From Chloroflexota bacterium (GTDB lineage: Bacteria; Chloroflexota; UBA6077; JACCZL01): a DNA stretch of 64,000 nucleotides. Shown here piece by piece: positions 3 through 37,516 of the stretch. The notes under the pieces are model-generated. The model saw nothing but the letters and a program-made list of their open reading frames with translations, was not told the DNA's origin and searched no databases. The translations under genes and the position numbers were made by a program. Where the stretch lies: positions 67,079-131,078 of the forward strand of contig JAUJPG010000011.1 in the NCBI GenBank assembly GCA_030447245.1, written 5' to 3'. Position 1 is the stretch's first letter. Every line of letters begins with the position of its first letter.

Positions 3-782
3 GCCTGCAAGGAGTGGAACCAGCTTCCCGCCACCCGTGGCGGCGAGGCATCGTTGAGCGGCGACAGCTACGACAACACCGTCGCGCTCAGCGGGACCGA
101 CTGGCGGCACGTAAAGTTCATCGAGCAGTTCAACCCGGACCGTGTTGGCGGTCGGTGGTTGATGATGAGCGACGTCTGCAAGCATTGCGTCCAGGCCGGT
201 TGTCTGGAGGCGTGCCCGACTGGTGCGATCATCCGGACCGAGTTCGATACCGTGGTGATCCAGGCCGATGTCTGCAACGGTTGCCGCTACTGCATCTCAG
301 CCTGCCCGTTCGACGTGATCGGGATCAACGAGGTGACGAATACGGCTCAGAAGTGCACGTTGTGCTACGACCGGTTGCAGGTCGGGATGACGCCGGCCTG
401 TGCTCAGGCGTGCCCGACCGCCTCGATTCAGTTTGGGCCGATCACCAGCCTGCGCGAGCGTGCCGACGCGCGCGTGGCCCAGCTCCAGGCGACCGGTGCC
501 CAGGCGTACGTCTACGGCAAGGAAGACATGCTGGGAGGGCTGAACTCGTTCTACCTGCTGGTCGACAAGCCCTCGGTGTACGGCTTGCCCGAAAATCCGC
601 AACTGCCGAGCAAGCAGGCCGGACTTGGTTGGCTTGCTGGCATGGGCAGCGCCGTGGTCGGCGGGCTACTCGGCGCGCTGTCGTTCCGTAAGCATCGGAT
701 GGACGAGCGGCGGCCAGTTGTCGCCGAGTCCCTGCCGCGGGATAGGCGGGAAGTCGAGACGCGCGACGAGGTGCGGCGATGA
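3..782 (+). CDS. fdnH: Formate dehydrogenase-N type iron-sulfur (beta) subunit, 5' partial (continues upstream of window)
   Basis: Frame 3 reads ACKEWNQ...CKHCVQAGCLEACP...CNGCRYCISACPF...CTLCYDRL...CAQACPT, i.e. four 4Fe-4S Cys clusters plus a C-terminal TM helix. The frame is open to the window edge with no start codon. Confidence 0.85.
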   Translation, partial: ACKEWNQLPATRGGEASLSGDSYDNTVALSGTDWRHVKFIEQFNPDRVGGRWLMMSDVCKHCVQAGCLEACPTGAIIRTEFDTVVIQADVCNGCRYCISACPFDVIGINEVTNTAQKCTLCYDRLQVGMTPACAQACPTASIQFGPITSLRERADARVAQLQATGAQAYVYGKEDMLGGLNSFYLLVDKPSVYGLPENPQLPSKQAGLGWLAGMGSAVVGGLLGALSFRKHRMDERRPVVAESLPRDRREVETRDEVRR

Positions 783-1693
783 ACCCGGCCCTGATCGAGC
801 GAGCTAATGCTGTCCACTGGGAGTGGATGGTGTATCTCGAAATGTGGATTGCGGGCATCGCCGCTGGCGCGTACGCAACGGCCGCGCTGCTCGAGTGGTT
901 CGGACAGGGCCGCTCGCCGATCGCGCGGGCGGCCCACCTGCTCACGATGCCGCTGATGGCGCTCGCAGCGCTGCTGCTGATCGTGGACCTGAGCCGCCCC
1001 GAACGGTTCTTCCACATGATCGTGCAGGTCAAGACCTGGCTGCCGAGTTTCAAACCCTGGTCTCCGATGTCAATCGGATCGTGGTTGGTGCTCGCTTTCC
1101 CAGTCTTCGCGTTCGTCTCATTCGTTGACGCGTTGATCGACCGCGGCATGTTCCGCCTGGGCAGCTGGCGGCGGGAGCGGACACTCCACGGCAGCAGCCT
1201 CGGTCGGATCTGGGCGACGCTCGGAGGACTCCTCGCACTCGGTGTGGGCACCTACTCCGGCGTGCTGCTGAGCGCGTCTGAGTTTCCTGGCTGGGCCGAC
1301 TCCTCGCTGATCGGCGCGCTGTTCGTCGTGACGGCGCTGGCGACCGGCATGGCCGCGCTGCTGGTGATTTCGGGGCTCGGGCGGGCAGTTGCTCCACCCG
1401 ACTTGCGCGACCTCGCCAGGGCGGCGACGTTCATGGTGGTCTGGCAGATGGTGTTGCTTGTGATGTTCGTCATCAGCCTGGGGCCGAGCGGCGCGCGGGT
1501 GTACCTGACGGGCCCTTACCTGCTGGCCTTGATCGGGGCGGCGATCCTCGCCGGCATCGCCCCGATCGCTTTGCTCCGGTTCGGAGCCACCCGGCTGCGA
1601 CCGGCCACGGCGGCGCTCGGCGGCATCACGATGCTGCTCGGAGGGTTCCTTCTGCGGTACGCGATCGTCATGGGACCCCAGGCACATGGCTGA
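779..1693 (+). CDS. Membrane anchor subunit of formate dehydrogenase / NrfD-PsrC family polytopic membrane protein
   Basis: ATG overlaps the fdnH stop (ATGA). The 304-aa product has about 8 predicted TM helices and typical NrfD-like composition, in operon position after the FeS subunit. Confidence 0.7.
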   Translation: MNPALIERANAVHWEWMVYLEMWIAGIAAGAYATAALLEWFGQGRSPIARAAHLLTMPLMALAALLLIVDLSRPERFFHMIVQVKTWLPSFKPWSPMSIGSWLVLAFPVFAFVSFVDALIDRGMFRLGSWRRERTLHGSSLGRIWATLGGLLALGVGTYSGVLLSASEFPGWADSSLIGALFVVTALATGMAALLVISGLGRAVAPPDLRDLARAATFMVVWQMVLLVMFVISLGPSGARVYLTGPYLLALIGAAILAGIAPIALLRFGATRLRPATAALGGITMLLGGFLLRYAIVMGPQAHG

Positions 1694-1889: not shown

Positions 1890-2204
1890 GTCCTCCTCGG
1901 AGCCTGCCTCCCCGCCCTCACCCGTAGCCTCCTCAGTGTGGACTGGATCGCGGCCAGTCAACGCACGGCTCCGCGGCGTCAGCACAGGCCCGGCGCAGAC
2001 GAAGCAGTCCGACGAGTGCCAAAAGGGGGGTCGGCGTGCGCGGCCCGCGCTCCGAATTGGCGGGTCCTGCGAAGTTCCTGAGTCCCTCTCACCTCAACCG
2101 TGATTGTGCGTGGGCCTCCTGACCGGGACGGGATTACCCCTGGAGGGGCGTTCGCGACAGTACAATCAGGTTGCCATACTATGCGGCTCGCGTGGAGACC
2201 CCGG

Positions 2205-2630
2205 ATGCCGATTTACGATTATCGCTGTACCGCCTGCGGGCGACGTTCAAGCCTCTTTTACCAGACGTTCTCGGCCGCCGAGAGCGCCGAGCCGCGCTGC
2301 GAGCACTGCGCCTCGGCCGACGTCTCGCGCCTCGTCTCGCGTGTGGCGCAGATCAGGTCGGAGGAGAGCCGGCTTGACGACATGGGCGATGAGAGCGCCC
2401 TTGCCGACGTCGACGAGAACGACCCGCGCAGCATTGCTCGCTGGGCGCGCAAGATGGGCGAGCAGCTTGGCGACGAGGCGGGCGACGACTTCAAGGAGAT
2501 GGTCGACCAGATGGAGGCCGGCGAGATGCCCGACGACGGAGCCATGGATGGTGGCGCGGAGCACGGGCTGGACAGCTTCCCGGGGGCTGGCGCCGAGCTG
2601 GGCGGCGCCGGTCACTTTGGGGACGACTGA
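2205..2630 (+). CDS. FmdB-family zinc-ribbon protein (putative regulatory protein)
   Basis: Starts MPIYDYRCTACG...EPRCEHC (the FmdB CxxC...CxxC signature at the N-terminus) followed by an acidic tail. ATG at 2205. Confidence 0.75.
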   Translation: MPIYDYRCTACGRRSSLFYQTFSAAESAEPRCEHCASADVSRLVSRVAQIRSEESRLDDMGDESALADVDENDPRSIARWARKMGEQLGDEAGDDFKEMVDQMEAGEMPDDGAMDGGAEHGLDSFPGAGAELGGAGHFGDD

Positions 2631-2656
2631 CCGCCGAGGTAGTCCACCCCCGCGGT

Positions 2657-3757
2657 CTAGTCGCCGAAGCAGATCCCGAGGTCGCGCGCCGTCCTGACCC
2701 GCTCGCCATCGGGTGGGACCGTCTTGCGTACGCCGACCGCGTCGCTGAGCGGAACTGCGACGATCTCGGCGCCACGCAGGGCGACCATCGCGCCAAATTC
2801 TCCGCGTTCGACCAGGTGGGCCGCCGCGGCCCCCAGTCGCGTCGCCAGCACGCGGTCGAACGGACTCGGGCTCCCTCCGCGCTGGAGGTGCCCCAGGATG
2901 GCGCAACGGACCTCGTGGTGGATCCGTTGACCAAGCTCTTCGGCCAGCCAGTGGCCGACGCCACCCAGGCGGACGCTAATCGCCAGGGGATCCTGCCTCT
3001 GGAGTGTCATTGCCTGACTGCCGACCTGGTGCGCCCCCTCGGCGATGACGATGATGCTGAATTTGCCGCCCCGCCGATCGCGCTCCTGGACGTACTCAGC
3101 AATCCGCTCAAGTCGGAACGGGATCTCTGGCAGCAAGATGACCTCGACACCGCCGGCGATGCCGGCCTCGAGTGCGATCCAACCGCTGTGGCGCCCCATT
3201 ACCTCCACGATCATCACGCGGTGGTGGCTCTCAGCGGTCGACTGGAGCTTGTCGATGGCGTCGGTCGCGGTGGCGACTGCGGTGTCGAAGCCGAACGTAA
3301 TGTCTGTCGCGGATAGATCGTTGTCGATCGTCTTGGGTACACCCACGATCGGGACGCCGGTCTGGGACAGCTTTAGCCCGATGCTCTGCGACCCGTCTCC
3401 ACCGACCACGACGAGCGCGCCGACGCCCAGTTCGCGCAGCCGGGCCAGCGCGTCTCCGGAGCGGTCGACCGTTTGCACCGTGCCGTCCACCAGGGTCTTG
3501 TAGTTGAACGGGTCGCCGCGGTTGCTTGTCCCGAGGATCGTCCCGCCGCGCGGCAGGAGCCCGCGGACGTGCTCAACGCGGAGCTCACGCACGCCGTCCG
3601 GGCGGAACAGACCCTCGAACCCGTCCAGGATGCCGCAGACGCTCCAATCGAAGCGTGCGTCGGCGGTCTTGACGAACGCCCGCAGCACCGCGTTGAGCCC
3701 CGGACAGTCGCCGCCGCCGGTCAGGATGCCGACGCGCTTGAGGCCACCGTGTGGCAT
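2657..3757 (-). CDS. pfkA: 6-phosphofructokinase (ATP- or PPi-dependent PFK family)
   Basis: MPHGGLKRVGILTGGGDCPGLNAVLRAF...GGDGS...MGR motifs. RBS GGGGGAG lies upstream of the ATG at 3757. The ORF extends to 3796 but the conserved N-terminus begins at 3757. Confidence 0.9.
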   Translation of the reverse strand: MPHGGLKRVGILTGGGDCPGLNAVLRAFVKTADARFDWSVCGILDGFEGLFRPDGVRELRVEHVRGLLPRGGTILGTSNRGDPFNYKTLVDGTVQTVDRSGDALARLRELGVGALVVVGGDGSQSIGLKLSQTGVPIVGVPKTIDNDLSATDITFGFDTAVATATDAIDKLQSTAESHHRVMIVEVMGRHSGWIALEAGIAGGVEVILLPEIPFRLERIAEYVQERDRRGGKFSIIVIAEGAHQVGSQAMTLQRQDPLAISVRLGGVGHWLAEELGQRIHHEVRCAILGHLQRGGSPSPFDRVLATRLGAAAAHLVERGEFGAMVALRGAEIVAVPLSDAVGVRKTVPPDGERVRTARDLGICFGD

Positions 3758-10751: not shown

Positions 10752-12633
10752 CTACGGCGCCGCTACCGCGGGTTTGACCACCTCCATGTCCGCAACGATG
10801 TCGCCCAGTCCCAGTCGCTCCAACGTCTCCGTGTTCGGGACGCCGCTGCCGGGATCCCAGCCGCGTGCCTCGTAGAACTCGCGGCGCAGGGTGTCCAGGT
10901 CGACGACGACGCCGGCGAGCGGGCCTTTTTCGATCGGCGGGTCGCCGTAGGCCCGGCCCGGGATGTGGTAGTTGACCGGACTGATCCCCTCGCGCAGACT
11001 GAACGCCTGGCGTATCGCGGCCACCCGCTGGCCAATCTCGTCAAGGGATTCGACGCTTGTCGGAACGCCGCTGACGGCCTCGATCGTCTCGGTCCATTCC
11101 GAAAAGGAGACGCGGGTGAAGGCGAACATGCATACACCGGCCGAGAAGACCGCCTGACCGAGATTGTTGATGTGGGCGTTGAGACCGCCTTTGCCGGTGT
11201 AGGTGTACTTCTCGACGCTTGGCGTGTCGATGCCGGGGATCGTGCCGCCATTCTCCTGGACCCAGGCGGCCATCTGGGTGTGCCGACCTGGCGTGGCATC
11301 GGCGGCGTAGATCATGCCCCAGCTCGGCGCGTAGCGCGGGTCGTGGGCGGGCGGCTCCTGGCCGCCGATGTGGACTGCCAATGCCTCGGAGCCAGCGATC
11401 TTTTGCGATGCCCGCATGACGCCGTCAGCCAGGACGTCGCCGATGCCCTCGCGCTTACCGATCTTGTCCGCCAGGGCCATGATCGACGCCGCGTCGCCCC
11501 ACTTCAGCTCAATACCGTCAGTGTCCCTCCTGGTGATCAGGCTCTGCTCGAAGCAGTCGATCGCGAACCCGATGACCGACCCGACCGAGATGGTGTCCAG
11601 CCCGTAGCGATTACACAGATCGTTAGCCTTCATGATCGAGTGGATGTTGTCGTTGAGCAGGTTGTTGCCCCAGAGGGCCGAGGTCTCGTACTCGGGCTTG
11701 TGGGTCTTGCCGACCGGGAACTGGGCATCATCCGTTCGGTAGTGACCTCCGCAGGCGATGTTGCACTTCCAGCAGGCGTACTTCTTGTACTCGTGAGCGA
11801 GCATGTTGTCGTCGCTGATCGCCTCCGCCGAGGGAAAGTCTTCCAACCCGCTGCCGGCCCAGTTGCGGACCGGCGAGTCACCGCCGAACGCCGACGAGGC
11901 GGTGTGATTGATCGTGCCGTACTTGGTGAAGTACTTGACCTTGGGATTGCCGGCCATCTCGCGAATGTATCGTTTGCGGATCTCGTTCGCCCGTGCAGCG
12001 TCATGCATCGGCAGCGCGGCGGTCCCGCGGCAGACGATCGCCTTGAGCTTCTTGGCGCCCATGACCGCGCCCATGCCGGAGCGCGCGGCGATGCGGCCTT
12101 CGTCGTTGACCACGCCGCTCATCAACGAGAGCTTTTCGGCCCCGGTCCCGATGACCGCCGACTGCGACTTCGGATAGCGCTCACGCAGCTGAAGCTCGGT
12201 GTCCAACGCGTCGACGCCCCAGAGGTCGCCGGCGTCGCGCAGCTCGGCCGTACCATCCTCGATGAATAGGTAGACCGGCCGGTCAGCGATGCCCTTGAGG
12301 AACACGCCGTCGTAGCCGGCTGCCTTGAGCATCGGACCCCAGTAGCCTCCGCAATTGGCGTCGCCCCAGCCGCCGGTCAGCGGCGACTTGCCGACGACGG
12401 TCCAGCGGTTGGGCGTGATGGCCGGACTGCCGACCAGCACCCCGGTCGTGAAGCCGAGTGTCGCATCCGAACCGAGCGGGTCTACCCCCGGACTGCTGTC
12501 CGTAGATCACCCGCGCCCCGAGGCCGTAGCCCCCAGGTAGTCACGGTACAGATCGTCGCCCGGCTCCTCGACGCCAATCGCGCCGCTGCTCAGGTCGACG
12601 AACAGTGAGCTTGCCCATGTGGCCGCCGATCAT
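10752..12633 (-). CDS. Aldehyde:ferredoxin oxidoreductase (tungsten AOR family); N-terminal ~80 codons disrupted by 3 single-base indels
   Basis: The 562-aa ORF 10752..12440 has AOR family motifs throughout. Upstream, MGKLTV/VDLSSGAIGVEEPGDDLYRDYLG/GYGLGARVIYGQQSGG/VDPLGSDATLGFTTG is spread over three frames (shifts near 12590, 12520 and 12468). RBS GGAGG lies before the ATG at 12633. Confidence 0.8.
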
Positions 12634-12962
12634 GTGATTGCCTCCAATGAAGTGTGCCACCACGCACGTACGAGTCGTCGCGATGCCGACGACCGCGATC
12701 ATACACACGCTGCGAAGGATTCAAGTAGTCGACAACGGAGCCGCTCGGGGCGTGTCGACGTCCAGTTTTCTCAGGGTAACCGATTTGTTGATCGGTCCCG
12801 CCGCCGCACACCCGCGCAGAATGCGAGGCCGACCTTCGAGGACCTCGCGACCGCGGCGTGGTCGTGGACCTGGTCCGTGTCTGGCGTACGCTCGACCGCC
12901 ACCGCCCACGGTGGAATCGACCAGAGCGGAGCCGTGGTCAGTGGTCAGGCAGGCCGTGAGCG

Positions 12963-33203: not shown

Positions 33204-34484
33204 TCAGCCCAGACCCCGGATCTCTGCGAGGGCGGCATCGATCTCCTCCGGGCGGTTCACCAATCCGGGCGCAACCCGCGCGTAACTCCTCCCGTACGGG
33301 GTTGTCGTCGCAATGATCCGCCGTTCACGGAGACGCTGCACGACGGCGCGCGGCTCCAGGCCGCGCACGTCGAAGCAGACCATTCCGGCGGAGAGCTCCT
33401 CCGCCATCGGCGTGTGGAGGGTGACGTGGTCCATCGCAGCCACACCCTCCTTGAACTGGCGGTTCAAGCTGCGAATCCGCGTGGTGACGCGGGCCTTGCC
33501 GATGTGCTGATGAAGCTCGAAAGCCTGAGCGAGCGCCCAGCGGTGCTCGAACGAGTGAAAGCCGCCAGGCGTCATCGCGCCGCCAGGCGTGCCGTTGTCA
33601 GTGAACGACGGAATCGTCGGTGCCGCCGCCGACCAGGCCTCGGGTCGGGCCCAGATCAGACCCGTTCCTCGCGGGCCGAAGAGCCACTTATGGCAACCGG
33701 CGACGAAGAAGTCGCAGCCGAGGTCGGTAGGGGCCTGATCCTCAACCCCCAATCCGTGAACACCATCGATGCAGAGCAGCACGCGATCGGCGTCAGACCG
33801 CCCAGCGTTCGCGTCGCCTACGGCGTCGGCCATGCCGCGGACCGGCAGCTTCACGCCGGTGCTCGAGTGGACCCAGGTGGCGGCCACCACCCGCGTCCGC
33901 GGCCCGATCTCCCTCCTCAGGGCATCGACGATCTCCACCTCGGACGCGGTTGCGGGATCGCGGTAGAGCGGGATGGTGCGCAGTGCCGCACCGCTGCGCG
34001 CGGCCTTCGAGCGGAGCGCCTCGTGAGTGGCATAGAAATCATGCTGCGTGGTGAGGATCTCCTGGTCTGCACGCACATCAAGGCCGTTGTACAGGAGGCC
34101 CAGCCCCATCGTGGTGCTGTCAGTTAGGGCGATTGCCGCTGGGCGGCCGCCAAGGTAGGCGGCCGCCTGGCGAAGCACCTCGGCCTCCAGTCGGGGCCCA
34201 TGCTCCTGGAGGTAGTGGACCGGGTTCTCGTCCAGGCCACGCCGATGGGCCTCAATTGCGTTGCGGACCGGCGTCGGATGCGATGCCAGGTACAACCCGC
34301 CCAGGTGGATGTAGTCGCGGGTGAGGGCGAACTGGTCGCGGATGGCATCCCAGTTGTCCAGCCCGGCCTGGCGGCGATCGGGCGCGCCGGCCAGCCCGCT
34401 CTGCTGGGGCAGGCTTGGCAGGGCGCCGGCCGTGACCGCCAGGGCCGAGCGCGCCAGGAACTCGCGGCGGCTCGACCCGCTCAC
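33204..34484 (-). CDS. Class-V aminotransferase-fold PLP enzyme (cysteine desulfurase / isopenicillin-N epimerase-like) with twin-arginine signal peptide
   Basis: The GTG start overlaps the stop of the upstream gene (GTGA). MSGSSRREFLARSALAVTAGAL is a Tat motif; HKWLFGPRGTG is the PLP-lysine region. Confidence 0.8.
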   Translation of the reverse strand: MSGSSRREFLARSALAVTAGALPSLPQQSGLAGAPDRRQAGLDNWDAIRDQFALTRDYIHLGGLYLASHPTPVRNAIEAHRRGLDENPVHYLQEHGPRLEAEVLRQAAAYLGGRPAAIALTDSTTMGLGLLYNGLDVRADQEILTTQHDFYATHEALRSKAARSGAALRTIPLYRDPATASEVEIVDALRREIGPRTRVVAATWVHSSTGVKLPVRGMADAVGDANAGRSDADRVLLCIDGVHGLGVEDQAPTDLGCDFFVAGCHKWLFGPRGTGLIWARPEAWSAAAPTIPSFTDNGTPGGAMTPGGFHSFEHRWALAQAFELHQHIGKARVTTRIRSLNRQFKEGVAAMDHVTLHTPMAEELSAGMVCFDVRGLEPRAVVQRLRERRIIATTTPYGRSYARVAPGLVNRPEEIDAALAEIRGLG

Positions 34485-34855
34485 GTTGAGAGTCCGCTCG
34501 GGCCGGCGGTCGCCTCGTCGCGGAATAGGAAGCGCCCGAAGAATGGCCGGTTGTTAGCCACGAGGCGGTAGCCGATCTCGACGGCCCAGATCAGCGGCGG
34601 AGTCGAGAGGACGGCCGTGGTGCGTCGCCAGCCGGCCTGCTCGAGCGCGCAGAGCGCTGCTCGGCCGGCGCGGAGGACACGGCCTTCGGGAGTGATCACG
34701 TGCACCGCCCGCGCGCATGCTCGTCTGAGACGCGGCGTCATCGGCGGCGACGGCGCATCTTGATAGGGTACGAACCTCAGCCGCCCAGCCCGATCTTGTC
34801 GCCTGACCCAGACGACGCAGCGTCGTCAAAACGCTCACGCACCGTCCCAGAACAC
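34481..34855 (-). CDS. DUF393/DCC-family thiol-disulfide oxidoreductase with both CxxC cysteines encoded by in-frame TGA (candidate UxxU selenoprotein)
   Basis: Minus-strand frame reads (GTG)FWDGA-TGA-AF-TGA-RRCVVWVRRQDRAGRLRFVPYQDAPSPPMTPRLRR...LIWAVEIGYRLVANNRPFFG. It is collinear with the DUF393 consensus (lfYDGeCplCnrfvrfl.rrDr.g.lrF.plQs...), and the two TGAs (34835..34837 and 34826..34828 on the forward strand) fall exactly at the CxxC positions. The annotated-style ORF 34481..34741 is only the C-terminal 86 aa. Confidence 0.55.
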
Positions 34856-35024
34856 CCAGTAGCGCGGTTCGCCACGCCCGGCCGTCGATCAACGCTGTCG
34901 CTCCTCGGTCGCGGCGCGTGCTGCCGCGGACAGATGGTATCGCATCCTTCTCACACGTGTTTGTGGCTGATGGGAGTCACTATCCCGGCCAGGCCATGCC
35001 GGCCGGCCCGGGTTGGCCGGGCGA

Positions 35025-35759
35025 TCAGGGATGCGCTGGGCGATCAGTTGGAGCCGGGCGCGACGCCCGAGCGAACCGATAGCCCAGCCCACGTTCGGTG
35101 AGGATGAAGCGCGGCCGATCCGGGTCATCCTCGAGCTTGCTCCGCAGGCGACTGACGTACACCTTCAGGTAGTCGGACTGTTCGCGATATTCCTCCCCCC
35201 ACACTCGGGCCAGCAGTGCCTCGCGCGGCAGGACGTGACCCGCGTTCCGCACAAGGTGGTAGAGCACCCGGTACTCCAGCGTGGTCAATGGAACCGGAGC
35301 CCCGGACTTGGTGACCTCGTGACTGTCGAAGTTGATCGTGAGGTTGCCCAAGGTGAATGAGGGCGTAGCGCGGATCGGCGGTGCGAGCTCTGAGCGTCGC
35401 AGGATGGCCTTGATCCTGGCGAGCAACTCGAGCGGACTGAAAGGCTTGGTGACGTAGTCGTCGGCGCCAATCTCCAGACCGCGTACCTTGTCAAGCTCCT
35501 CGCCTCGCGCGGTGAGCATCAACACCGGGGTGTCAGAGACTGCGCGGATCCGGCGCAGCACTTCAAAGCCGTCCAGCCTCGGCAATCCCACGTCGAGCAG
35601 AACGACATCGGGCTGCTGCTCAAAAAAGACCTCTAGGCCCTGCTCCCCGTCGGTCGCGGTGATCACCTCGGCGGCCTGCCACTGGAGCTGCATGCCGAGG
35701 CCAAGGGCTTCGAGCAGGTCGTGGTCGTCGTCGACGATCAGGATCTTCATCGGCCACGA
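35025..35759 (-). CDS. OmpR/PhoB-family response regulator
   Basis: MKILIVDDDHDLLEAL...LDVGLPRLDGFEVLRRIR...winged-helix C-terminus (VYVSRLRSKLEDDP...GYRF). Confidence 0.85.
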   Translation of the reverse strand, partial: SWPMKILIVDDDHDLLEALGLGMQLQWQAAEVITATDGEQGLEVFFEQQPDVVLLDVGLPRLDGFEVLRRIRAVSDTPVLMLTARGEELDKVRGLEIGADDYVTKPFSPLELLARIKAILRRSELAPPIRATPSFTLGNLTINFDSHEVTKSGAPVPLTTLEYRVLYHLVRNAGHVLPREALLARVWGEEYREQSDYLKVYVSRLRSKLEDDPDRPRFILTERGLGYRFARASRPAPTDRPAHP

Positions 35760-37516
35760 GCGTCTGGGTCGCTCCCGGCCGCGCGCGACTGCCCCGAGGC
35801 CTCGGGAAGAACCACGAAGAACGTGGCGCCGCGCCCGGTCCGACTGTCCAGCCCGACGCGGCCGCCGTGCAGCTCGGCAAGCGCGTGGGCGATCGGCAGT
35901 CCCAGGCCGGTGCCTGTCGTCCGGCGCGTCGGCTCGTTGTCGAGCCGATAGAATCGCTCGAAGATCGCCCGCTGCTCGGAGGGCGGGATGCCCGGCCCGT
36001 CGTCGTGCACGGACAGGCGGACTGAACCCGCGGGCGCCGGTCCGACGCGGAGGAGGATGGTACTTCCGGAGGGTCCGTATCTGACGGCGTTGGTGAGCAG
36101 ATTGAGCACGATCTGCTCGAGCCGTCGACGATCGCCGTCGACGGTGCACGGCCGGGAGGAGCTGCTCAGCCGGATAGTCTGGCCACGCTCGTCGGCCAAC
36201 GGGCGGACCGTTGCGACCGCGTCCTCGGCAATGTGGCGCAGGTCCAGCAGGTCGCGATGTAGCTCCAGCCGACCGCCTTCAAGGCGGACCAGGTCCAGCA
36301 GGTCGGTCACAAGGGCCGTCAGCCGATCGCTCGAGCGATCCACATTTCGGAGTAGCCGGCGGTGGGTCTCCGAAACGTCGACCGGTGCCGTCGACAGGAG
36401 GACCTCGGCCGAGGCCTTGATCGACGCCAACGGAGTGCGCAGCTCGTGGGAGACGAGCGACAGGAATTGCGACTTGAGCCGCTCCAGCTCCTTGAGCTGC
36501 TCGCGCTCGCTCACGGCCTCCTCGTAGAGCATCGCATTCTCGAGCGCCACCGCCGCCTGGGCGGCGAACACGCCGAGCAGGCGGGCATCCTGGCGGGTGA
36601 ACAGGCCCTGGGTCTTGTTCGCCACGCGGAGCACGCCGAGTACGCGGGTTGCGCGGAGTGGGACCATCAGCAAGGCTCGTTCGCCGAGCACACGCGCGGT
36701 CTCGCTTCCATCGCGTCGATCCGCCGGCGCGTCGTTGGTGATGTACGGGTGCGCGGTTTCGAAGACCTGGACGCACACGCCGCCCTGGGCGAGTGGAAAG
36801 CTGAGTCGCCGTACCTGGTTCGGACGGTAACCGTGCGGAGACGGGCGTGCGACGAGTGACCCCGCCTCGAGCGTCAGCACGGCCGCGCGGTCAGCCCCAA
36901 GCAAGTGGGCTGCCTGACGGGCGACCTGGGCGCCCACCGCGTCCAGCTCGGCCAGCGCGGCAATCGCTTCGCTGGCCTCGGCGAGGCGCGCCACGTCAGC
37001 CAGTCGATCCTGCAGGGCGTCAAACAGCCGGGCGTTGTCGACCGCCATGGCGATAGACCCCGCGAAGGCCCTCATCAATGCATCCGCGGTCTGCGGAAAT
37101 GGGCGCGCCCGGGCCCGCAGGGCGGTCAGGGTGCCCAACCTCCGGCCACGCAGGAGGAGCGGGATGGTCAGTCGGGTGGACAGTGCGTCGGCCGCCTGGC
37201 CAGCCCAGGGGCGGCGAACGTGCAGCACCTCGACTCCGCCCGGGCCACCCAGGCGGATTGTCGCGGCGTCGGCCCTGACCGCATTGGCAACTAGCTCGGC
37301 GGAGCGCCGCAGCACACCGTCAAGGTCGTCAGCCGCGGCGATGATCCGTGGCATCCGGCCGAGGTGCCGGGCGGCCGCTGTGCCCAAACTGGCTACAGCC
37401 GGCGGTGCGTCGGCTTGCTCGGCTTCGCGGGCAATCACCGCGTCTCGCTCGATCATCTCTCGGCCCCCGCTTGCGGTCCCTCGTCCGGTATACCCCGCGT
37501 GAAGGCCGGCCGCCAC
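35747..37516 (-). CDS. GAF-domain sensor histidine kinase
   Basis: GAF-like N-terminal regions, HisKA (LSLVSHELRTPL) and HATPase_c (GTGLGLPIAHALAELHGG). It overlaps the RR start. Start codon uncertain (alternative at MIERD). Confidence 0.8.
   Translation of the reverse strand: MAAGLHAGYTGRGTASGGREMIERDAVIAREAEQADAPPAVASLGTAAARHLGRMPRIIAAADDLDGVLRRSAELVANAVRADAATIRLGGPGGVEVLHVRRPWAGQAADALSTRLTIPLLLRGRRLGTLTALRARARPFPQTADALMRAFAGSIAMAVDNARLFDALQDRLADVARLAEASEAIAALAELDAVGAQVARQAAHLLGADRAAVLTLEAGSLVARPSPHGYRPNQVRRLSFPLAQGGVCVQVFETAHPYITNDAPADRRDGSETARVLGERALLMVPLRATRVLGVLRVANKTQGLFTRQDARLLGVFAAQAAVALENAMLYEEAVSEREQLKELERLKSQFLSLVSHELRTPLASIKASAEVLLSTAPVDVSETHRRLLRNVDRSSDRLTALVTDLLDLVRLEGGRLELHRDLLDLRHIAEDAVATVRPLADERGQTIRLSSSSRPCTVDGDRRRLEQIVLNLLTNAVRYGPSGSTILLRVGPAPAGSVRLSVHDDGPGIPPSEQRAIFERFYRLDNEPTRRTTGTGLGLPIAHALAELHGGRVGLDSRTGRGATFFVVLPEASGQSRAAGSDPDARGR

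Follow-up and report, generated by a model that had tools for sequence, protein, structure and literature searches.

A probable, uncatalogued selenoprotein subfamily of DCC1-like (DUF393) proteins with in-frame UGA codons at the redox cysteines

A 64,000-nucleotide stretch of contig JAUJPG010000011.1 from a Chloroflexota bacterium (positions 67,079 to 131,078 of the forward strand; hereafter the window) carries a minus-strand gene for a predicted DCC1-like protein (DUF393; Pfam PF04134) in which both cysteine positions of the DxxCxxC redox motif are occupied by in-frame TGA codons. Judged from its sequence and that of its relatives, the locus very probably belongs to a DCC1-like subfamily with UGA at one or both of these cysteines. 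We are similarly confident that, at the level of the family, both UGAs are recoded with the help of a selenocysteine (Sec or U) insertion sequence (SECIS). It is likely, with somewhat less confidence, that these genes form a widespread and uncatalogued DCC1-like selenoprotein subfamily, found in Chloroflexota, Armatimonadota, Myxococcota, Planctomycetota and Actinomycetota, mostly of the UxxU type, with one SECIS for two UGAs, with CxxU and UxxC intermediates still extant, and with a UxxU site capable of forming a diselenide. The features of the window on which this proposal is built are as follows.

34481..34855, minus strand: predicted DCC1-like (DUF393) coding region containing both TGAs, based on translation, a PF04134 match of 63.1 bits and pN/pS (the ratio of the proportions of nonsynonymous and synonymous differences)
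34835..34837, minus strand: first in-frame TGA (putative Sec1), at the first Cys of DxxCxxC; TGA in 37 of 109 related loci (31 UxxU and 6 UxxC), otherwise TGC or TGT
34826..34828, minus strand: second in-frame TGA (putative Sec2), at the second Cys of DxxCxxC; TGA in 37 of 109 related loci (31 UxxU and 6 CxxU)
34798..34816, minus strand: SECIS-type hairpin GUCGUCUG-GGU-CAGGCGAC, based on centroid fold, RNAalifold and covariation
34481..34741, minus strand: 86-aa open reading frame (ORF) reported by gene callers, holding the C-terminal two-thirds of the domain only; identical to P0003

The 86-aa ORF is stored as an unnamed protein (P0003) in NCBI and Logan. When its frame (34741..34481) is extended upstream, it reads ...R-stop-STAGRGEPRYWVFWDGA-stop-AF-stop-RRCVVWVRRQDRAGRLRFVPYQDAPSPPM..., and the minus-strand translation of 34481-34951 as a whole reads ...EERQR-stop-STAGRGEPRYWVFWDGA-stop-AF-stop-RRCVVWVRRQDRAGRLRFVPYQDAPSPPMTPRL...; around the motif the sequence is YWVFWDGA-TGA-AF-TGA-RRCVVWVRRQD. 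The coding region is limited by GTG 34855..34853, the sole in-frame start upstream of the first TGA, and by the stop codon TGA 34483..34481, and the predicted product of about 124 aa would carry the motif D-G-A-U-A-F-U. A first-pass annotation of the same DNA had placed the two in-frame TGAs exactly on the CxxC positions and had matched the 86-aa ORF to the C-terminal two-thirds of the family only; coordinates, translation and PF04134 match all agree with both statements. The ORF alone scored 23.9 bits against PF04134, over profile positions 49-109 and under the gathering cutoff of 27.8 bits. Aligning the upstream-extended protein with Cys at both TGAs, a check that the annotation had proposed with U in their place, raised the score to 63.1 bits over profile positions 1-109 of 113. 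Both TGAs coincide with the CxxC of DxxCxxC, the Asp is retained (W-D-G-A), and the domain match begins exactly at the GTG codon 34855. The Logan assembly of run SRR24765285 (contig L028) has the same sequence through both TGAs.

A protein search with the Cys-substituted query recovered many full-length CxxC homologues of 60-70% identity from Chloroflexota and other metagenome-assembled genomes (MAGs), together with many truncated proteins of 76-104 aa that begin just past the motif. DNA of relatives was collected as 27 loci from one-genome-per-species contigs and 80 metagenome loci. This search was blind to the motif because its patterns were taken from the C-terminal part of the domain. Counting the window and the duplicate Logan contig L028, 109 loci contained the motif. 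CxxC was found in 66 of these, with TGC or TGT at the positions of the TGAs, TGA-xx-TGA (UxxU) in 31, Cxx-TGA (CxxU) in six and TGA-xxC (UxxC) in another six. This ortholog comparison, also suggested in the first-pass annotation, thus yielded 12 loci with a single TGA next to 31 with two, UxxU being the commonest Sec form (31/43). UxxU carriers include MAGs named as Chloroflexota, Chthonomonadaceae (Armatimonadota), Myxococcota/Polyangium, Planctomycetota and Actinomycetota, and the TGA codons are conserved at the same positions in at least five phyla. All in-frame stops in the 109 loci were TGA, never TAA or TAG, and none occurred elsewhere in the domain. On these alignments, the TGA-xx-TGA pattern appears far more often than chance would allow.

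Two readings without any specific recoding have to be weighed here. The first is an ordinary pseudogene, in which two nonsense mutations fell on the catalytic Cys codons, leaving the 86-aa ORF, or no protein at all, as the product. It is in keeping with the gene callers' report of the 86-aa ORF only and with the doubtful upstream in-frame start of the window copy, discussed below. However, both codons are TGA in 31 loci of several phyla and never TAA or TAG, the domain has no other lesions, and the nucleotide divergence of about 26% among the related loci excludes that they are misassemblies of one sequence. In addition, the part of the gene that would be untranslated in a pseudogene is under purifying selection: between the window and its relatives L029 and L030 (pS about 0.5), pN/pS was 0.19-0.25 in the 40 codons upstream of Met34741, which require read-through of the TGAs, and 0.14-0.25 in the 75 codons downstream. 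A value of about 0.2 in the read-through codons makes the pseudogene reading untenable at the family level, and with the covarying hairpin tied to the TGA forms (below) we regard it as very improbable. The claim of the first-pass annotation that the locus represents Cys-to-Sec recoding and not a pseudogene is therefore strongly supported, at the family level, by the conserved TGAs, the hairpin covariation and the purifying selection.

The second reading, a genome-wide reassignment of UGA (e.g. to Trp or Gly) or non-specific read-through, is hardly credible. Apart from the in-frame TGAs, nothing favours it. Many well-supported genes of the window terminate in TGA, including the DCC gene itself, a PvdN-like gene, a response regulator and a histidine kinase, as the first-pass annotation had pointed out in dismissing an alternative code. 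Moreover, the in-frame TGAs align with Cys only, and the carrier phyla use the standard code.

The stem of a candidate recoding signal begins 9 nt past the second TGA. Its 5' arm occupies 34816..34809, its loop 34808..34806 and its 3' arm 34805..34798, and the loop lies 17 nt after the second TGA and 26 nt after the first. The family hairpin is (G)CCGCCUG-GGU-CAGGCGG(C), with a stem of 7-8 bp (8 bp in the window) and a GGU loop. RNAalifold predicted the same helix unprompted on alignment A3, which holds 39 distinct Sec-form fragments. In A3, 92.9% of the cells were paired in the named 8-bp structure, compared with 15-45% when the 3' partner was slid, and changes on both sides were seen in five of the eight pairs (24 cells). 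These compensatory changes were C-G to U-A (at two positions), G-C to A-U, C-G to A-U and U-A to C-G, and the observed covariation values were matched in none of 500 shuffles. Some compensatory pairs join a synonymous Ala change with an Arg-to-Lys change; therefore, these coupled changes point to selection acting on the RNA.

The hairpin is associated with the UGA forms. All seven inner pairs form in 33 of 34 loci with TGA at the second position and in three of five UxxC forms, versus only one of 63 CxxC forms. In the loop, Val was encoded by GTC in 27 of 27 UxxU forms and the following Arg by AGG in 23 of 23, whereas Cys forms have mixed codons and differing residues at the same sites. A published model of bacterial SECIS elements (bSECIS; PMC13188914) comprises an apical loop of 3-9 nt with G at position 1 or 2, an upper stem of 4-16 bp, a UGA-to-loop distance of 16-37 nt and a minimum free energy (MFE) of -7.5 kcal/mol or lower. 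The window hairpin agrees with the model in every respect (GGU loop, 8 bp, 17 and 26 nt, MFE of -9.8 kcal/mol), and at 34816..34798 it lies within the region, 34780..34840, where the first-pass annotation had advised looking for a SECIS. The mean MFE was -12.1 kcal/mol among the Sec forms and -3.3 kcal/mol for the same columns in Cys forms. The three UxxC forms with the standard hairpin suggest that the 26-nt spacing may be usable alone.

We propose the following mechanism. One bacterial-type SECIS hairpin within the coding sequence (7-8 bp stem, GGU loop), starting 9 nt past the second UGA, would recruit SelB with Sec-tRNA(Sec), and both UGAs, 9 nt apart, would be decoded as selenocysteine. 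The product of about 125-140 aa would then have its active site, DxxUxxU, at the N-terminal end of helix alpha-1, and would cycle between diselenide and diselenol in place of the disulfide and dithiol of its Cys homologues. That the residue inserted at both codons would be Sec, and that a single SECIS would serve both UGAs, is our inference from the sequence comparisons described above.

Several observations weigh against this interpretation. The single-sequence fold of 91 nt around the hairpin is unexceptional for DNA of 68% GC (z = 0.28), and an Rfam scan with E-values up to 10 gave no match at 34700..34920; Rfam holds no usable bacterial SECIS model for this hairpin. Because the lone-sequence fold is unexceptional and Rfam gives no match, the case rests on the comparative data. 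Two of the five UxxC forms, L055 and L100, are without the standard hairpin. Decoding by Escherichia coli SelB is sensitive to the spacing between UGA and SECIS, and here one hairpin would have to serve two spacings. The only in-frame start of the window copy is a GTG at codon -6 with no visible Shine-Dalgarno sequence. Finally, no selA, selB, selD or tRNA-Sec was found in the 64-kb window (with ARAGORN, Rfam, and Pfam scans of about 40 ORFs) or in the flanks of the related loci.

The two exceptional UxxC forms have other structures in the corresponding region. In L100 (1513-1590) there is a shifted 5-bp hairpin with a GGGUGG loop and -7.8 kcal/mol; in L055 (1513-1590) there is another structure, with no G at the loop start. 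These two loci may represent independent SECIS solutions or defective genes.

Even if recoding is accepted, one or both UGAs might be read as Cys by a SelC*-type tRNA (tRNA-ReC), delivered by SelB to the same hairpin, in which case the product would be CxxC, CxxU or UxxC. In a study of Group 4 [NiFeSe] hydrogenases (PMC13582414), genomes with UxxU-type enzymes were enriched for tRNA-ReC-like genes (about 56% versus 2.3%; five of five in Armatimonadota), and its authors cautioned that either or both UGAs are possibly read as Cys. This enrichment, and the overlap of the phyla with those carrying the DCC UxxU form, Armatimonadota and Chloroflexota included, speak for such decoding in our family. 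However, no tRNA of any kind was found near the gene in the window or in the 41 Sec-form loci, and Cys decoding would still need the SECIS and SelB. It would thus be a variant of SECIS-dependent recoding and not an alternative to it, and we consider it unlikely. Across the whole window, an Rfam scan at gathering scores returned three tRNAs only.

Signs of the Sec trait were sought in other genes as well. A scan for in-frame TGAs with coding signal on both sides found no other selenoprotein candidate in the window, and among all loci only a DsbA-like gene in L011 stood out. In L011 (DAINSK010000012.1, a Chloroflexota MAG), this gene (2289-2921, minus strand) lies head to head with the DCC UxxU gene and reads FSDFI-TGA-PWCY (UxxC), with the TGA at 2861..2859. 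Against Pfam DSBA the truncated ORF scored 63.6 bits, and the protein with Cys in place of the TGA scored 115 bits; 21 nt past the UGA there is a hairpin of 8 bp whose loop is GUC. L011 therefore appears to contain two candidate selenoprotein genes head to head, and because DsbA-like UxxC proteins are a catalogued selenoprotein type (PMC13188914), the second gene is independent evidence of the Sec trait in that genome.

The first-pass annotation had also taken formate dehydrogenase subunits at the start of the window to imply the presence of selABCD, and this argument is weak. At its start the window cuts into a gene for an Fe-S subunit (Fer4_11), which is followed by an NrfD-type membrane subunit (54..1693, plus strand). 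The best NCBIfam match of the Fe-S subunit, FDH-beta (TIGR01582), reached 150 bits against a cutoff of 334.7, and no sel gene or tRNA-Sec lies in the window. By sequence, these subunits appear only loosely formate-dehydrogenase-like; the catalytic molybdopterin subunit would lie just outside the window and could be a selenoprotein. Elsewhere in the window (2100..2630, plus strand) there is an FmdB-family zinc-ribbon protein (PF09723, CxxC...CxxC) in its Cys form, a family for which UxxU forms are listed in the 2026 catalogue.

While recoding is strongly supported for the family, the integrity of the window copy is a separate question. Two further features are relevant to it.

34890..34906, minus strand: apparent ancestral start, with Shine-Dalgarno GAGGAG at 34906..34901, an 8-nt spacer and TTG at 34892..34890; out of frame with the DCC domain
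34866..34878, minus strand: about 13 nucleotides that L029 and L030 do not have, the placement depending on the alignment (A5, A6)

Nearly all of the 39 Sec forms have an ATG 11-17 codons ahead of Sec1. In L029 and L030 this ATG stands at 14 codons and has a Shine-Dalgarno sequence; L111, the closest relative, has a TTG in frame at that distance. In alignment A5, TTG 34892 of the window aligns with the ATG of L029 and L030. The distance from this codon to the TAC of YW is 31 nt in the window versus 18 nt in L029 and L030, and the ancestral TTG is out of frame because of the roughly 13 extra nucleotides. Translation from TTG 34892 gives an unrelated product of 112 aa (ORF 34554..34892). The first-pass annotation was right that no in-frame start other than GTG 34855 precedes the first TGA; the third upstream TGA, which it had placed 10 codons further up, lies 12 codons before the GTG (18 before the first TGA), at 34891..34889, where it overlaps the out-of-frame TTG 34892..34890.

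The window copy may therefore start at GTG 34855, contain a 1-nt assembly error, or have been disabled recently. That the family is truly recoded and this particular copy is not intact, by recent disabling or a 1-nt error, is a serious possibility, to which we give a little less than even weight. The aligned but displaced TTG with its GAGGAG, the in-frame TTG of L111 and the ATG of nearly all other Sec forms, compared with the lone GTG of the window, all favour it, as does the gene for aldehyde:ferredoxin oxidoreductase (AFOR) on the same contig, with three frame changes at G-runs. On the other hand, the PF04134 domain begins at the GTG, so that a start there preserves the whole domain. The two UGAs and the hairpin are preserved, and the remaining 117 codons run on without another stop or frameshift. 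Long uninterrupted ORFs account for most of the window's other genes, and indel errors are therefore infrequent in it. The independent Logan contig L028 ends short of the start region.

The N-terminus of AFOR (window 12440..12640, minus strand; gene at 10752..12440) changes about three times between two frames, giving the pieces MIGGHMGKL, LFVDLSSGAIGVEEPGDDLYRDYLG, GYGLGARVIYGQQS and GVDPLGSD..., and two of these changes occur at five-G runs. It is either a decaying pseudogene or the result of local homopolymer indel errors in the assembly. When a general indel-error cause of the start problem was considered, only AFOR had frame changes, and the other split-gene candidates were separate intact genes.

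Downstream of the DCC gene lies a further feature.

33204..34484, minus strand: PvdN-like pyridoxal phosphate (PLP) enzyme with class-V aminotransferase fold (Pfam Aminotran_5) and twin-arginine signal SRREFLARSALAVTAGA; overlaps the DCC gene by GTGA

This gene matched NCBIfam PvdN (NF051467) with 432.6 bits, under its cutoff of 650. By its sequence arrangement it is predicted to be translationally coupled to the DCC gene through the GTGA overlap, which is created by a 10-residue C-terminal extension of the window DCC protein. The pairing is kept in the closest relatives L029 and L030 only and not in other phyla. A GAF-containing histidine kinase and a response regulator of the OmpR type are the immediate upstream neighbours on the same strand, both in the window (35025..37516, minus strand) and in L029 (1-2633). 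Homologues of the response regulator are likewise found beside the gene in L029, L030, L001 and L008, with varying strands and architectures (RR-GGDEF in L008, RR being response regulator). Among nine genome loci, all-against-all clustering and Pfam scans revealed no common neighbour. A conserved neighbourhood was accordingly rejected, the PvdN-like and histidine kinase/response regulator context being common to the closest relatives only.

To examine the likely fold, an AlphaFold2 model was built on the Cys homologue P0001 (69% identical), with a pLDDT of 87.4. The elements of the model are ordered beta1, CxxC at the N-terminus of alpha1, beta2, alpha2, beta3, beta4, alpha3 and C-terminal helices, in agreement with the expected thioredoxin-like fold and a redox pair at the N-terminus of helix 1. 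Foldseek with this model gave weak glutaredoxin and mycoredoxin matches only, and no relative of solved structure was detectable by sequence. For Arabidopsis DCC1, a role as a thiol-disulfide oxidoreductase of the DxxCxxC type, which reduces a subunit of complex I, has been described (PMC7598583). From the thioredoxin-like model and this description of DCC1, we infer that the protein is most likely a small redox protein with a diselenide/diselenol active pair.

The Cys-form DCC1-like proteins, such as Arabidopsis DCC1 and Bacillus subtilis YuxK, have the same domain, the same position of DxxCxxC and the same predicted thioredoxin-like fold. They differ in having neither the UGAs at both redox Cys nor the SECIS hairpin that here lies within the A-W-V-R-R codons. 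Among catalogued selenoproteins, UxxU occurs in a Prx-like thiol:disulfide oxidoreductase (UxxC/UxxU), the metal-binding NF041115 and FmdB TIGR02605 (PMC13188914, Table 1). These likewise have two Sec codons three residues apart in place of CxxC and a bacterial in-frame SECIS, but they belong to other protein families, PF04134 not being among the 119 listed. The Group 4 [NiFeSe] hydrogenase large subunits (PMC13582414) also show a mix of CxxC, CxxU, UxxC and UxxU within one family, with a mosaic phylogeny and in overlapping phyla, and there too both UGAs have been proposed to share one downstream SECIS, whose loop has G as its first or second nucleotide. However, the hydrogenase residues are metal ligands in a large enzyme complex, whereas those of the DCC proteins would make up the redox pair in small, stand-alone proteins of thioredoxin fold, and it is in the DCC family that UxxU is the commonest Sec form.

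Outside the bacteria, SelL is reportedly a Prx-like selenoprotein with a thioredoxin fold and UxxU for CxxC that can form a diselenide, as described by Shchedrina and colleagues in 2007; it is said to be eukaryotic, with a SECIS in the 3'-UTR (untranslated region), and belongs to an unrelated subfamily. The SECIS elements of E. coli fdhF and fdnG resemble the DCC hairpin in lying within the coding sequence just past the UGA and in having G followed by G or U at the start of a small apical loop. The fdhF loop stands about 19 nt after its UGA, versus 17 nt after the second UGA in the DCC hairpin. Unlike them, the DCC hairpin has a different sequence, no bulged U and a 3-nt loop, and it would serve two UGAs, at 17 and 26 nt.

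Thioredoxin-fold proteins with Cys/Sec pairs, UxxU motifs and in-frame bacterial SECIS elements are already well known. The first-pass annotation knew of no UxxU selenoprotein in the DCC family, and in the sources searched this has held: PF04134/DCC/DUF393 is absent from the catalogue of 119 prokaryotic selenoprotein families (PMC13188914, 2026), NCBIfam release 20 has no model that matches the window protein or its Cys homologue, and no report linking DUF393, DCC or PF04134 with selenocysteine was found in the searchable literature, including the deep-Sep paper and its supplements. In the databases, the window gene is stored as an 86-aa fragment and that of L012 apparently as a 104-aa fragment (P0071), both as unnamed ORFs, an example of how bacterial selenoproteins are systematically mis-annotated as truncated ORFs.

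If true, the finding would add one family to the about 119 known prokaryotic selenoprotein families, and its compact and strongly conserved SECIS signature, TGA-N6-TGA-N15-TGGGTCAGG, would be usable for the re-annotation of genomes. It would be a rare bacterial instance of a double-Sec redox motif as the majority Sec form. The four versions of the motif, sharing one hairpin, would provide a natural series for the gain of a second Sec and for the reloading of SelB on a single SECIS. The family would permit a direct test of whether one bacterial SECIS can serve two close Sec insertions, and with what tolerance of spacing, as well as of the benefit of a diselenide over a selenenylsulfide or disulfide in a thioredoxin-fold protein. 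It would also serve to flag Sec use in soil-type phyla, Chloroflexota and Myxococcota for instance, whose selenoproteomes are poorly charted.

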